Position numbers and translations under genes: made by a program. From Thermodesulfobacteriota bacterium (GTDB lineage Bacteria; Desulfobacterota; Desulfarculia; JACQYL01): DNA of 64,000 bases. The notes below the pieces were generated by a model. That model made no database searches, was not told where the DNA came from, and was given only the letters and a program-made list of their open reading frames with translations. The DNA lies in assembly GCA_963675595.2 (NCBI GenBank), contig CAXXLZ010000002.1, forward strand, positions 2,976,001 to 3,040,000. The letters run 5' to 3'. Positions 3 through 5,791 of this stretch are shown piece by piece. How positions within the stretch are numbered: position 1 is the stretch's first letter; the number at the start of each line of letters is the position of its first letter.

Positions 3-3000
3 TACGGCTCCTCTATTGGCGACTCTCAATTTGGTTATAGTGTATCTATTTCATCGGATGGGACAACTCTTCTTGTAGGAGCTCCCTATTTTGGTCTCTC
101 GCCTCATGGTGTCGTTCTTGTCTTTACGGGCTCAGGCACCTCGTGGACTCAACGGACAGACTTCGAGGGGGATGGTTCAACTGAGTATTTCGGCTCCGGC
201 GTCTCTCTCGCATCAGATGGGACCACGGCTGTTATCGGAGCGCCGCGTAATAATTCAAGTACCGGAGCGGCCTATATATATACGGGCTCAGGCAGTTCCT
301 GGACCCAACAGGCAAAGCTTTCAGCAACCGGCGGAGCAACCGGTGACGATTTTGGTACTCGCGTATCTATTTCACCGGATGCCACAACCGTCTTAATCGG
401 AGCGCCCGGAGATAACTCTGATCTTGGGGCGGCATATATTTTTACCGGTTCCGGCAGCTCCTGGGAACAGCAAGCCAAACTGATCGGCGATAATTCCGTT
501 GATGAAGACTTTGCGCAATGGAGTATGGCGATCTCCCCGGATGGAAAAACGGCTTTTATTGGAGCGAGATCGTATAACGGCTGGCAAGGAACCACTTATG
601 TTTTCGAGGCGGCAGGCGGCCCCACTTGGGACGGAAGCGAAAGTTCCGACTGGACGGATGGAGACAACTGGAGCACCGGAACCCAGCCGGGCGCCGATGA
701 TGATGTCGTAATCCCCGATGCCTCCACAACCGATCATGATCCAAACGTTGCCGGCGGGTATACGGTGAATTCCTTCACCGTGGAGAACGGCGGTGTGGTG
801 AACTTCACGAGCGCTGCCGCCAAGATCACCGCCGACGAAGGCGTCATCAGTATCACCGGCACCGGTGAAGGAGGGAACGGCGCTCTCAAGGCCGGCAGTT
901 CGTCCACCCAAATTCAATTGGAGGCCCAGACCGGTAATCTAACCCTTGCGGGCGCCAAGATCGTCTCCAACGGCGGTCTCATCGATATCAAGAGCACCGC
1001 CGGCGCCGTCGTGATCACCGGGGACACGACCCTTTCCGTCGACAATTCAAACGTGAACCTGACTTCAAGCGGAGGGGATATCGCCGGCGGCGGTTCCCTG
1101 ACCATCACGGTGAACGGGGTGGCGGGCGAAAGCGTTACCATCGCCGACGACATCAACGGCCTTGCGGCCCTTACTATATCCAACGCTCCGCAAGTCGATC
1201 TTCAAAACGTCTCGGTCACTACCGGAAACATCGCCGTCACCGGCTCGAACATCGACCTCAACGGCGCCACCTACACCAGTGCCGGCGGTTCCGTCACCTT
1301 CACCGGGGCGGTGGATCTCGATTCCCCCGGCGGGGCGGCCGTTTCGTCCGGGGGCGAGGCCGGCGACGACATCTCCTTTACCGGCACCATCGACGGAAAG
1401 GACGACGACACCCAGAGTCTCACCCTTGACGCCGGCTCAGCGGGAACCGTTTCGGTTTCCGGCGCCATAGGCGGGACGGCCTCAAAACAAATTAAGACAC
1501 TGACGATCACCAACAGCAACGGCGCCACGTTTTCAGGTGCGGTTACAGCCGACACCGGCGTGGTTCTCACGGACTCCGAGGACGGTTCCGACATCGTCTT
1601 CGACGGCGCCCTCGTGACGCCGACCCTGACGACCGCCGATCAGGGCTATAATGTGCAGCTGAACGGCGACGGAACCACCATTGCCGATCTTGTGGAATTC
1701 CTGAACACGGGTACGGTTTCGCTCGGCGATGCCGCCGGAGATACGCTCACCTTCAACGGCGGGATTGAAACAACCGGCAACGGCAGTAATCCATCTTCCG
1801 TCAGCCTCAACGGCGCCCTGGTGACCTCGAACGACGTGGTTACCCTGGGTGCAACCACCATCAGCGGTACCGCGGCGATCAATTCCGGAGGCGGCGCCAT
1901 CGCCTTTTCAGGAACAACAGGGGGCGGCGGCACACTCACGGCCTCCGGCGGGACGGTAACCTATGGCCTGGCCGGTGCTCAGAGCATTTATACAGGTACC
2001 TACGCGGGGGTTTCCTTTGCAGGAAGCGGCACCAAGACCCTCGCCGGGGCCATCGACGTGAACGGCAACCTTTCCATCGCTCCGGGCGTTACCCTCGATG
2101 TCGCAAACGGCGGTGACTTCGGCATCAACGTAGCCGGAAACTGGAGCAACAACGGGGTATTCGACGGCCGGTCCGGCACCGTGACCTTTGACGGATCCCT
2201 AGCCCAGGGCATTTCCGACAACTCCACCTTCCACAATCTGACCATCAACGCTTCGGCACTGGTGACGCTTGCCGGAGACGTCACTGTCGACGGCACCCTG
2301 ATCCTCACCGACGGCGGCGGATTGATCGACACCGACGGGCATACACTGACTGCCAACGGCACGATTCTGGATGATTCAGCCGGTACTGATTTTGACGGCG
2401 ACCATATGATTATTTCGAATGGTACGGGAAGCCTCCGGCGAACGGCTCCCAATGCCGGGACCTACCTGTTTCCCGTGGGGACCCTGAATGGAACCGCCTA
2501 CTATTCACCGGCGACCCTCATTTTTACCGACGGGTCTTATGACGGCGGCGCCTATGCGGAGATTTCCGTCAATAACAGCAAACAGCCGAACAACACCAGC
2601 ACCACCAATTATCTGAACCGGTACTGGACCGTGGCCCAGAGCGGCATATCGGGTTTTTCCTGTAATGCCTCTTTCAATTACCAGCCGGATGACGTTGCGG
2701 GCACGGAAGCCGATATTTCCGGCGCCGCCTACAGCGGCGGGGCCTGGACGGCACTTAGCCCTGTGGATACGGTCAACCACAAGTTTTCCGGCACGGTTGC
2801 GAGTTTTTCCGATTTTACGGGTGTCGGGTCCTACGGGGTGACCTACAACGCCAACAGCGCCACATCCGGCACGGCGCCCGCCGCTCAAGCCAAGATTAAA
2901 GGCCTGGACCTGACGCTTCAGACGAACTCGGGCAGCCTGGCCAGAACCGGATATACCTTCTCCGGATGGAACACGTCCGCCACCGGACTAGGTACTCACT

Positions 3001-4056
3001 ACGACGCCGGAGGCACCTACTCCGCCAATGCAGCCGTGACCCTCTATGCCGAATGGACGGCCGATACCTACACGGTGACCCTTGACGATCAGGGGGGCGC
3101 CGGCGGAAGCGGCAGTGTGACCGCGACCTACGACTCGGCCATGCCTTCGGCCACGGCGCCGACGCGTGACGGGTTCACTTTCGTCGGCTACTACACGGAA
3201 ACCGGAGGTTCCGGAACTCAGTACTATACGGCGGCCATGGCGAGTGCGCGCAACTGGGACCGGACTTCGGACACCACCCTGTACGCGCATTGGACCACCA
3301 TAGTCGCTCCCACGGCTACCGACGCGACGAACGTTTCGGGAACCGGGTTTACGGCCAACTGGCTCAGTGTCGCCGGTGCGACCGGCTACCGGCTGGATGT
3401 GTCGGAACAAGACGATTTCAGCACCTTCGTCACCGGGTACCAGGACAAGGACGTGGGAAATGTCACCTCTTCAGCGATAACCGACCTCAACGAGGTAACG
3501 GAATATTATTACCGTTTGCGGGCCGAGAAAGACGGATCGACAAGCGACCATTCCAATACCATCAGCGTGACCACTTCCGACGGCACCGGGGTTTCGGCGG
3601 GTGTTCAGGATGCCGTCCCCAACGGCGGCGACGGAAACGGCGACGGCATTCAGGACAGCCTGCAGACCAGTGGGGCGTCCCTTCCTTCAGCCTCATCCGA
3701 CCAGAGCTATCTCACCCTGGAAGTCCGGGACGGTTGCGATCGGCTGCACAATGTGGCCACCGGCACCTATGCTTCCGTGGGGACTCCTGATCCGGGCTAC
3801 GAGCATCCCTTTGAGCTGATGTCTTTTAACCTTCCTTGTGCGACGGCCACGGTTCGCGTCTACTATCACGGCGCCGATTCTCTGGCGCATTTTGTCTACC
3901 GGAAATTCGGCCCGACGCCCGACGACTGGAACTCTTCGGTGTGGTACAGCATGCCTGATGTGACTTTCGGAACGGAAGAGATCGATGGAAAGACCGTTCA
4001 CTATGTCGAATTTGTGCTGGAAGAGTCCAAACTGGGCGACGATACCAAAGGTTTCC
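3..4056 (+). CDS. Large secreted/surface protein, 5'-partial (FG-GAP repeats, beta-helix-like Gly/Thr/Ser-rich region, InlB B-type repeats, fibronectin type III, choice-of-anchor U-like domain); interrupted by IS110 element
   Basis: Frame of ORF 525..4220 is open from position 3 (YGSSIGDSQFGYSVSISSDGTTLLVGAP...FGSGVSLASDGTTAVIGAP... = FG-GAP repeats). It also has RTGYTFSGWNT/PTRDGFTFVGYY repeats, an FTANW..GATGYRLDV..YYYRLRA Fn3 domain and a DGNGDGIQDS motif. With the IS present the frame reads on to a stop at 4220. Confidence 0.85.
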
Positions 4057-4070
4057 TATGTGGCCTCAAG

Positions 4071-4287
4071 TCAAGCCGGAATTGGATAACCGTTTCCTAT
4101 TCGCGCCCGAAGCGCCAAGTACACATGCGATGTAGAAGCGAAGATGCCGCCATTTCCCCAGCGCTACCGATGCAGCCAAACTTTATCGCGGCCGTCTCCG
4201 CTGTTGTCTCCCCGGCTTGAGGCTCGGGACCCACCTCAAGTATGGGTCCCGAGCCGGTTGGGTTCTCCTAAACAAGTCCTAACCGGC
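4071..4287 (-). ncRNA. Candidate bridge/seek RNA of the IS110 element
   Basis: Structured non-coding end: closing stem 4071-4079/4212-4220, 13-bp hairpin 4221-4255. It has 8-nt matches to the reconstructed target (TTTCCCCA, 4153-4160) and the circle junction (TTTCCTAT, 4093-4100). Exact RNA ends are unknown. Confidence 0.7.
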
Positions 4288-5376
4288 TCATGCTTGGTCC
4301 GCTTGGAGACGAAATTCATAGGTCCGTTTTTCCATGGTCAATCGCCATAGAACAACGGCCAGTTTCCGTGCCAACGCACAAATGGCCTTTTGTGGAAGGC
4401 CCGTTCGCGACAGGAGTTTTCGATAATGCGAATCAATGGCCGGATCCCTGGACTTCCACGTCCAGGCCGCCTCCACCAACAGACTCCGCAGTCGCGTCTG
4501 ACCCACGGGAGGAAGCGCCACTCGAGATTTCCTCTCTCCGCTCTGTCGCACCAGGGGGGCGAGTCCCAGATAGCTGGTCACTTCCTCCACTCGATGGAAC
4601 CGACTCGGGCGAAACAATTCCAGGAGGAAGGTAGCCGCTGTGATGGGACCCACCCCGGGGACGCTTCGAAGGCATCGCATTTCCTCAAAGTGTTCAGGTT
4701 TCTCGCACACACTGGAAGTCCTTTCCTCCATGAAGGCTTTTTCCTTTGTGAGGAAATTCAACTCACGGAGCAAGCTGAGCAGCGTCGCTTTGGCCTCCTT
4801 CGGCAGACGAAGCTTTCGAAGTTGCGCCACAGCGCTTCGGCCCCAATGATTGAGCCCGGGAGGCGCCTCCACACCGTGAAACAGCAGAAGGGATTGAATT
4901 CTCTGCTTAACGCGTCGAGTGCCGTCGGCCAGATCGTGCCGACGGCGAATTACGCTGCGTTCGGCCTCCTCTTCCTCCGTGGGAACGGCGATGGACTTCA
5001 ATATCCCTCGGGCGGCATGGTCCGCCAACCGCATGCAATCCAGGCGGTCGGTCTTGGCCCCCGCAGTCACCGGCCTAGGGACCCGACTCGGCGCCACCAC
5101 GATCACGCTGAACCCGGCTTTGGCCAAAGTGCGCGCAAGGCCGAAGCCGGTGGGCCCCGCTTCGTAGGCTACGGCTCGGATGCGCCTCAAGTGGGGGAGC
5201 AACATGGCCACGATGGCCTCCGGAGAGGCCGAGGACACAAAAGTCTTCACCTCGCCGTCGCTGCGAAGCACGGCCACGTGGTAGCTCTTTTTGTGTACGT
5301 CGATCCCGACGTGGAAATCACGGTCGATATCCAGCTCCAAAAACTTGGCCAATTCTGTTACTTTCGTTGCTACCAT
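4288..5376 (-). CDS. IS110-family transposase/recombinase (RuvC-like DEDD domain + Tnp domain)
   Basis: GIDVH, YEAG and KTDRLD supply the DEDD residues; SVPGVG and YLGLAP..RQSG (catalytic Ser loop); ALARKL. AAGGAG RBS precedes the ATG at 5376. Confidence 0.95.
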   Translation of the reverse strand: MVATKVTELAKFLELDIDRDFHVGIDVHKKSYHVAVLRSDGEVKTFVSSASPEAIVAMLLPHLRRIRAVAYEAGPTGFGLARTLAKAGFSVIVVAPSRVPRPVTAGAKTDRLDCMRLADHAARGILKSIAVPTEEEEAERSVIRRRHDLADGTRRVKQRIQSLLLFHGVEAPPGLNHWGRSAVAQLRKLRLPKEAKATLLSLLRELNFLTKEKAFMEERTSSVCEKPEHFEEMRCLRSVPGVGPITAATFLLELFRPSRFHRVEEVTSYLGLAPLVRQSGERKSRVALPPVGQTRLRSLLVEAAWTWKSRDPAIDSHYRKLLSRTGLPQKAICALARKLAVVLWRLTMEKRTYEFRLQADQA

Positions 5377-5447
5377 GTTGGTCTCCTTTCTGTTTGGGTG
5401 ATGCTCCATCATAACGATCGAGCACCTGAGGCCAACATGGTATTTCC

Positions 5448-5602
5448 CCATCATAGATCAAGGCGGCGTCGCTCGAGCGGACGACGCCACCGGTCGAACA
5501 AGCACCGCCGTTCCTACACTCAAAGAGTGTGGACTGATCATTCTGGCGCTTCTATTGGGCTGCGGGGCCCTATGGAGCATCAGACGACGGGAGGAATGCT
5601 GA
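5448..5602 (+). pseudogene. Detached C-terminus of the large surface protein, carrying an IPTL-CTERM-type sorting signal
   Basis: Translates (P)IIDQGGVARADDATGRTSTAVPTLKECGLIILALLLGCGALWSIRRREEC*: VPTL motif, TM helix and basic tail. In frame with 3..4056 once the IS is removed. Confidence 0.88.
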
Positions 5603-5791
5603 CCATTCAAGGGAGGACTCTTGAAGAAAGTCCCTTCCGAGCCCTCAAGACCTCACAAACAGGCCTTACCGCCTTCGGCGGAGAGCCTGAGGGGGAATAC
5701 GGTTGCTCGTTAACTTCCAGGGCTCCTTTTTTGAAGCGGGCTTTGAGGTCGTCGCCGCTTACAAGAATCTAAAACATCCCGCCGGCAATGG

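Follow-up and report, generated by a model that had tools for sequence, protein, structure and literature searches.

We consider here a stretch of 64,000 nucleotides from a Thermodesulfobacteriota bacterium (assembly GCA_963675595.2, contig CAXXLZ010000002.1, positions 2,976,001 to 3,040,000), called the window in what follows, and within it an IS1111-type insertion sequence of the IS110 family that lies at 4055-5442. It is very probable that this element, with the non-coding end located 3′ of its transposase gene, is the locus of a bridge/seek RNA made of a target module and a donor module. Three of its four guides and both handshake-like positions, i.e. bases that match the non-cognate DNA partner, are backed by covariation in the sequences of relatives, and transcription, processing, binding by the transposase, a circular intermediate and programmability would be expected by analogy with published systems. 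Since the guides covary with the flanks of each element and the scaffold displays compensatory changes, it is comparison, rather than the matches found in a single window, that decides. RNAs of this kind are already known (Durrant 2024; Siddiquee 2024), and no new principle is involved. What the locus provides is a worked case free of internal contradiction, with a natural empty site, eight copies, a sibling that looks retargeted (L009), and guides that can be compared directly with flanks in about 30 relatives.

The guides and handshake-like bases of the window copy are the following:

4178-4184, minus strand: 5′-side target guide, RNA AAAGUUU, complement of AAACTTT, identified by flank covariation
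4153-4160, minus strand: 3′-side target guide, RNA UGGGGAAA, same sequence as the transposase-proximal flank plus core
4152, minus strand: handshake-like base of the target module, RNA U, identical to the first base of the left end
4117-4122, minus strand: candidate 5′-side donor guide (weak), RNA GUACUU, 5/6 complement of left-end AAATAC
4093-4100, minus strand: 3′-side donor guide, RNA AUAGGAAA, same sequence as the right-end terminus plus core
4092, minus strand: handshake-like base of the donor module, RNA C, identical to the first flank base beyond the right end

In the mechanism that we propose, the 3′ non-coding end would be transcribed on the strand of the transposase gene into a two-module bridge/seek RNA. 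The first module, binding the target, would comprise stem P1a/P1b, an internal loop and an inner hairpin, P2; AAAGUUU, on the 5′ side of the loop, would pair with one strand of the target and UGGGGAAA, on the 3′ side, with the other one, both guides overlapping on the 3-nt core (AAA/TTT). In the second module, binding the donor, AUAGGAAA, 3′ of hairpin P4, would read the joined right end and core of the excised circle, and the left end would fall to GUACUU, a short and imperfect guide that precedes P4. U 4152 and C 4092 would match the non-cognate partner, as do the handshake guides of IS621 after strand exchange.

Target guides follow the insertion sites of relatives

Relatives were collected in a scan of one genome per species (15 loci, with 36-55% protein identity, including seven copies in one metagenome-assembled genome of Desulfovibrionaceae), in a scan of metagenomes (80 further loci) and among the host's own relatives, which yielded three partial elements. 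Matches among these host relatives were limited to 3 of 60 other genomes, with one of the three being a 23-base chance hit, and no close orthologous element was found.

AAACTTT comprises the core and the flank beyond the right end, in the orientation of the transposase, and the two target guides correspond to opposite strands of a target, now confirmed as an empty site, where they overlap at the core. Covariation between guides and insertion sites, a check suggested in the initial annotation of this DNA, is found on both sides. When the ten bases preceding AUGG were compared with the element's own flank in the 15 elements for which the transposase-proximal flank is known, the 3′-side guide agreed at 127 of 150 positions; permutations averaged 88, and 0/20000 were as high. 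For the 5′-side segment, compared as a substring with the reverse complement of the core and the flank beyond the right end, the summed longest common substring reached 137 in the 18 elements for which that flank is known, with a permutation mean of 74.9 (again 0/20000). Covariation was unchanged when four to five near-duplicate elements were omitted (L037, L038, L039 and L041, together with L009 for the right flank). It extends to a second group of relatives, clade B, the core of which is AG and which took no part in the training of the RNA model described below: 52 against 35.9 for the 3′-side guide (2/20000) and 46 against 27.8 for the 5′-side guide (4/20000). Individual matches may be long, as in L035 (GGCCCUUUU and GGACAAAAAA, 9 and 10 nt), L032 (CUAGAGCUU, 9 nt), L033 (UUAUAAUUU, 9 nt) and L039 (GUGGAAGAAA, 10 nt). 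Misses were retained in all counts: in L027, the element of genome G047, the 5′-side segment is out of register with the flank, sharing only a GCGGGA 6-mer further 5′, and the 5′ segment of L056 scores only 3.

Within the host genome, where the eight full copies carry identical guides, the segment at 4178-4184 is a perfect complement of the flank in five copies, has a single mismatch in the window copy and in one other, and two mismatches in one copy. The guide at 4153-4160 (TTTCCCCA on the DNA) agrees with the flank at 8/8 bases in three copies, at 7/8 in four and at 6/8 in one. The AAACTT that had been proposed as the reader of one target half is present and tracks flanks, and it can be extended by one base to AAACTTT.

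A further comparison is offered by L009, the partial copy that is 81% identical to the others. As compared with the window, only its 3′-side target guide is replaced, UGGGGAAA becoming CCUGCAAA, and the other three guides are the same. This looks like natural retargeting, as judged from the sequence of a copy the matching flank of which is lost.

A conserved two-module scaffold

4085-4203, minus strand: two-module guide RNA core, sole match in the window to covariance model R1 (89.8 bits, E 1.8e-19)
4195-4201 (P1a) and 4188-4192 (P1b), minus strand: 5′ arms of the stem closing the target module (covariation, duplex energy)
4146-4150 (P1b) and 4138-4144 (P1a), minus strand: 3′ arms of the same stem (same evidence)
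4163-4176, minus strand: P2, inner hairpin of the target module (93.7% of cells paired, 4/5 pairs compensatory)
4103-4115, minus strand: P4, hairpin between the two donor guides (100% of cells paired, 3/4 pairs compensatory)
4212-4220 (5′ arm) and 4071-4079 (3′ arm), minus strand: outer stem, an exact 9-bp inverted repeat

Twenty distinct elements (alignment A2, which leaves out L045, with its long insertion in P4) share a common plan. In transposase orientation, stem P1 is followed by a variable segment, by hairpin P2 and by a second variable segment ending in AAAUGG; the strand that completes P1 comes next, in most cases with a hairpin P3 (GUACC...GGUAC) after it, and the plan closes with hairpin P4 and GAAUAGGAAA. 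In this alignment 90.3% of cells pair, as compared with 21-48% when partners are slid by one to three columns, 12 of 18 pairs have changed on both sides, and none of 500 shuffles reaches the covariation score. The covariance model built from these 20 relatives, R1, gave 34 matches in 96 sources, 14 of them beyond the training set, and all are located 3′ of a transposase match, on the same strand. The alignment derived from R1, which was fitted to the model and hence leans towards it, has 91.1% of its cells paired (18-58% with slid partners) and compensatory changes at 14 of 18 pairs, with 0/500 shuffles as high. P1, P2 and P4 are paired at 94-100% with compensatory changes, P1b at 96% with all four of its pairs compensatory, and for P1a the summed energy of each element's own duplex is -93.7, against -56.4 for permuted partners (0/5000). 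P3 is paired at 77%, the window copy and L009 having a shifted small hairpin instead. More distant members of the IS110 family (L061-L112, 27-34% protein identity) had no match to R1, which leaves room for RNAs of their own.

In one relative, L015, the distance from the donor module to the right end is increased by some 290 bases (at about 2750-3060), and the transposase gene is frameshifted; this copy may be decaying, or may carry a passenger.

In the window, folding the minus-strand RNA, as the initial annotation had recommended, gave the two-module shape that it described, with a minimum free energy of -100.3 kcal/mol (z -3.73) and none of 200 shuffles as stable. The imperfect stem round the first module is part of this fold, as P1a (4195-4201/4138-4144) and P1b (4188-4192/4146-4150), and the minus-strand RNA carries the target module on the 5′ side and the donor module on the 3′ side, as predicted. 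The motifs on which the prediction was built are all in place: TTTCCCCA at 4153-4160, AAACTT at 4178-4183, TTTCCTAT at 4093-4100 and AAGTAC at 4117-4122, as are the 9-mers that extend each 8-mer to a junction, GTTTCCTAT at 4051-4059 and 4092-4100, and ATTTCCCCA at 5442-5450 and 4152-4160. Among 5000 dinucleotide shuffles of the non-coding region, an exact match of at least eight bases to the empty site arose in 441, a match to the circle junction in 315 and both in 29. This suggests that the 8-mer matches of this one sequence are moderately unlikely by chance without being decisive, and that the weight is carried by comparison.

The donor module and the handshake-like bases

In 17 of the 18 elements of clade A, the 3′-side donor 8-mer is identical to the terminus of the right end of the same element, and in L048 it matches at 7/8, as read off a table of right ends; L040 and L047, devoid of the donor motif, were left out before counting. 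The exact guides occur in four states, ATAGGAAA, ATAAGAAA, ATGAGAAA and ATAGGAAU (the fourth also given as ATAGGAAT). In clade B a donor 5-mer matches the right end in 10 of 11 elements. The proposal that TTTCCTAT is a donor guide is supported, as it tracks the right-end terminus in both clades.

The 5′-side donor guide at 4117-4122 is weakly supported. AAGTAC is present with its 5/6 match to the donor half, as had been noted, and the corresponding GUACUU sits at a conserved GGUAC, the GGUA of which could pair with TACC of the left end. The left end is almost invariant in clade A. In clade B, two elements inspected by eye fit a guide of this type, L050 (CAUAACU with AGTTATG, 7 nt) and L017 (CUACC with GGTAG, 5 nt).

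It is worth considering separately the bases adjacent to the 3′-side guides. In IS621, the bases immediately 3′ of the right guides form pairs with non-cognate DNA once strands have been exchanged (Hiraizumi et al. 2024, PMC11208158), and the one additional base by which each 8-mer had been seen to reach into a junction is, by analogy with that account, the counterpart of these handshake guides. The base of the target module is an invariant U/T in clade A and agrees with its partner in 9/9 cases in clade B (eight A/A, one U/T), with G/G in L017 and L049 when read by eye. That of the donor module matches in 11 of 18 clade-A elements, against a permutation mean of 6.6 (216/20000), and in 9 of 11 clade-B elements, one duplicate being counted.

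The element, its copies and its empty site

4052-5445, minus strand: insertion sequence including both 3-nt core copies, delimited by the joint of empty-site contigs and by the shared ends of eight copies
4055-5442: element proper, with its transposase gene on the minus strand
4052-4054 and 5443-5445: TTT core copies
4056-4287: non-coding tail of the insertion sequence
4288-5376, minus strand: transposase gene, 362 amino acids plus stop, DEDD/Ser recombinase of the IS110 family (Pfam, NCBIfam and PDB matches)

The insertion sequence, 1391 bp in length, is absent from metagenome contigs that join 4051 directly to 5443, skipping 1391 bases with five ambiguous letters (TTTCC) at the joint, so that the empty target, which had been reconstructed on paper, is seen directly. 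These contigs come from a single metagenome sample, in three runs (X1, X2, X4), and differ at about 16 of 352 flanking bases, which indicates a related strain. Identity with the target reaches TTTCC (4052-4056 and 5443-5447), and because element and target are identical over these letters the crossover cannot be placed from the window copy alone. The 5 bp of identity announced between target and donor hold in the window, but only three of the five shared bases, TTT on the plus strand, are constant across the clade.

The host genome contains eight full copies, with the same ends and 99-100% identity, and all encode the same transposase protein. It also has the L009 partial copy and a 73-base end fragment. 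L009 (G000:C1:339436-339997) is a truncated sibling located 3 kb from a full copy. The window copy differs at 11 positions from the other seven, which are mutually identical. Three of these lie in the non-coding region, outside the guides (4203, 4206, 4210), and the other eight, all synonymous, are clustered at 4533-4591 over the region of the SG motif, which suggests a patch of gene conversion from a diverged relative. We can understand the window element, which is of the IS1111 type within the IS110 family, as an insertion sequence that is intact and was active recently.

The sites in the genome have the consensus GGGGAAA|CTTTC in transposase orientation. The element prefers as its target a single arm of the palindrome GGGGAAACTTTC-NN-GAAAGTTTCCCC, a repeat in which five of the eight copies reside; the genome has 20 sites for it at no more than three mismatches, and a control with the reversed pattern had none. 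Five of the sites are occupied and some 15 are free (e.g. G000:C2:40324-40349 and C3:102081-102106). The palindrome looks like a repeat of the REP or terminator kind used as a preferred landing site. A search of the same genome for the exact 12-mer TGGGGAAACTTT was uninformative (one site, against four and one in the reversed control).

The transposase matches PF01548 (57.9 bits, 1.3e-15), PF02371 (78.8 bits, 4.1e-22) and the NCBIfam model NF033542, "IS110 family RNA-guided transposase" (228.5 bits, cut-off 140), and has both the N-terminal DEDD/RuvC-like and the C-terminal Transposase_20 domains of the IS110 family. Among proteins of solved structure, the closest to it are the transposases of ISCro4 (E 4.8e-11) and IS621 (E 3.9e-10). 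The blocks GIDVHK, YEAGPTG, KTDRLD and QSGE align with ISCro4 and are invariant in four relatives (alignment A1), as are the catalytic candidates D26, E72, D110, D113 and S279-G280 that lie inside the ISCro4-aligned blocks; the block alignment makes them equivalent to the residues D11, E60, D102, D105 and S241 given for IS621 (PMC11208158). The traits listed for IS1111 elements are subterminal inverted repeats of 7-17 bp, a long downstream non-coding region, a GL-P----S(t)G motif and a protein of 330-350 amino acids (PMC11187229). The element has such repeats, about 230 bp of non-coding DNA 3′ of the stop codon, as compared with about 66 bp 5′ of the start codon, and the motif in the C-terminal domain as GLAPLVRQSG; its 362 amino acids place it outside the quoted size range.

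Weighing the two-module RNA against other explanations

Several observations weigh against the guide RNA as we describe it. It is known here from DNA, its transcription and its ends being predictions made by analogy; a scan of 4056-4290 with Rfam gave no match to a guide RNA, the best hits (E 2-10) being all unrelated. Fold energy does not discriminate between strands (z -4.76 on the plus strand, -3.73 on the minus strand), and G.U cells exceed A.C cells by only 13 to 6, a mild lean to the minus strand. The relatives are not independent of one another, so that the permutation figures given above overstate significance. The 9-bp stem said to enclose both modules is indeed an exact inverted repeat, but its conservation across the family is weak (97/5000 permutations); it is distinct in the window, L009, L043 and L048 only, with one compensatory change between the window and L009. 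As for the left-end guide, it bears a conserved C.A mismatch, most relatives use GGUAC as the 3′ arm of hairpin P3, and changes of GGUAC in L044 and L046 are compensated inside P3, not in the left end. A test of this guide gave a mean of 4.1 against 3.3 (244/20000), with three wrong left ends included (L011, L015, L055), and is not used as support, the longest common substring being too coarse for a guide of 4-5 nt.

These last points feed an explanation in which only the first module is a functional guide, as in a strict seekRNA, and the transposase itself reads the ends via the subterminal inverted repeats. The second module would then have a structural or regulatory role in the transcript, or else repeat the right-end terminus inside the element as DNA to which protein binds. 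In the experiments reported in PMC11187229, a short seekRNA with the target module only was enough for ISEc11, so that the donor module may be dispensable in IS1111-type elements. The repeats, of 11-12 bp, have arms that change together in relatives, and the 5′-side donor guide is weak and mostly buried in P3. Yet the 3′-side donor segment follows the right-end terminus in at least five states and two clades, it is placed relative to its hairpin just as is the target guide of the proven type, and the base next to it tends to match the target flank (11/18 and 9/11), a feature that a protein-binding repeat leaves unexplained. We therefore hold the target-only explanation to be improbable. Far less credible still is the idea that the matches are features of DNA not involving RNA, such as remnants of earlier insertions, nested ends or chance similarity in an A/T-rich core region. 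Neither 8-mer taken alone is rare, as the shuffles have shown, but compensatory changes occur in the scaffold helices, and the guides change with the unrelated flank of each relative, a pattern that nested ends cannot yield. The preferred reading remains an RNA with a target module and a donor module.

Relation to known systems

Bridge RNAs were predicted in the right end of 93% of IS1111 elements (Durrant 2024, PMC11208160), and seekRNAs with the same order of guides were demonstrated experimentally (Siddiquee 2024, PMC11187229). As in the seekRNAs of ISEc11, ISPa11, ISKpn4 and ISPst6 (PMC11187229), the RNA would come from a non-coding region 3′ of the transposase gene, in an element with subterminal inverted repeats and a GL-P----SG motif, and it would form a stem-loop with two short guides that match opposite target strands and share bases at the point of insertion; of the two, the more 5′ in the RNA is the one complementary to the top strand. 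Elements can be retargeted naturally when their guide bases are replaced, as described there for ISEc11 and ISXne4, and this would have its parallel here in the window element as compared with L009 and relatives. The likeness to these named elements is one of traits. The transposase is longer (362 amino acids versus 330-350), and the present element has a second module, matching the donor and provided with handshake-like bases, whereas in the parts of that account compared here the matches described are with targets.

The likeness to the bridge RNA of IS621, in the features reported in PMC11208160 and PMC11208158, lies in the presence of two modules, in a target loop that precedes the donor loop in the 5′ to 3′ direction, in loops that each read both strands of DNA round a shared core, in handshake bases directly 3′ of the 3′-side guide that match non-cognate DNA, in a promoter (predicted here) at the circle junction and in DEDD and Ser catalytic residues. 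There are also differences from IS621. The RNA gene is in the right end, 3′ of the transposase gene, instead of the left end, and its transcription runs the other way with respect to the recombination site; the core has 3 nt (AAA/TTT) instead of CT; where IS621 has a simple internal loop, the donor module here forms a multiloop to which a further hairpin, P3, is added; the guide for the left end is far shorter; and the proteins are only distantly alike, over the C-terminal domain. The layout of the RNA is that of IS621 when the plus strand of the window is taken as the top strand, and that of IS1111, i.e. the reversed order, in transposase orientation (PMC11187229). The bridge RNAs predicted by Durrant et al. 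for ISPa11, ISAzs32 and ISCARN28, compared via the text and legends of that article, resemble it in being right-end RNAs with the donor-binding nucleotides in a multiloop.

The analysis thus maps the "reversed" guide order of IS1111 onto the geometry of IS621, and extends handshake pairing of the IS621 type, by covariation, to an IS1111-type clade. A compact recombinase of 362 amino acids and its guide RNA, with a 3-nt A/T core, join the pool of candidate programmable recombinases. More speculatively, and as a proposal that we think has perhaps the lesser part of the chances on its side, this clade could show that IS1111-type elements use the full logic of IS621, four guides and handshake, with an RNA gene inverted relative to the recombination site and a left-end guide shrunk to about 4 nt and, as long as the RNA is free, locked in a hairpin (GUACC/GGUAC, imitating the left-end duplex), the left end being read jointly by RNA and by protein-bound repeats. 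If true, the donor would be a hybrid, read in part by protein, and this would explain why target-only seekRNAs are sufficient in ISEc11.

Termini and predicted junction promoter

4058-4068, no strand assigned: subterminal inverted repeat of the right end, read from the sequence
5427-5438, no strand assigned: subterminal inverted repeat of the left end, pairing with 4058-4068 with a 1-nt indel
4069-4074, minus strand: -35-like TTGACT, 17 nt from TACCAT after circle formation
5437-5442, minus strand: -10-like TACCAT, tip of the left end, from its sequence

The arms of the subterminal repeat change together in L015, L037, L039 and L042. TTGAC stands at the same distance from the right-end terminus in 18/18 listed clade-A right ends, and TTGACT-17-TACCAT across the circle junction is a predicted junction promoter, by analogy with that reported for the IS110 family (PMC12288879). 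The left end has another promoter-like site at 5435-5408. In L049, a metagenome contig, a right end (CTCATAGCAG) abuts a left end (GTAATATG) at about 1049-1075, with a second full copy after it, and the junction displays TTGACA-17-TAATAT. One explanation is a dimer in tandem, the other a circle junction that was captured during assembly.

The tip of the left end at 5430-5440 (CCAUGUUGGCC in the RNA sense) is complementary to 5373-5384, over the start codon of the transposase. Of 17 clade-A elements, 14 retain this pairing, and L037 and L045 show compensatory changes in it. Read-through transcripts could thereby have their start codon masked, and transcripts from the junction promoter would be devoid of the 5′ arm of the pairing.

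The interrupted gene and its surroundings

The element interrupts a gene for a very large surface protein (window 3-4055 and 5447-5602, with more than 1350 codons in the window and an open 5′ end). The 51-residue tail that follows the element, in frame, matches the IPTL-CTERM sorting domain (TIGR04174, 28.4 bits, cut-off 20.5). Removal of the element restores the gene, which is uninterrupted in the related strain of the same metagenome. Just 3′ of it, at 5656-5697, contig depth rises to 165-206, as compared with about 5 around, with many different loose ends: this segment is another dispersed short repeat.

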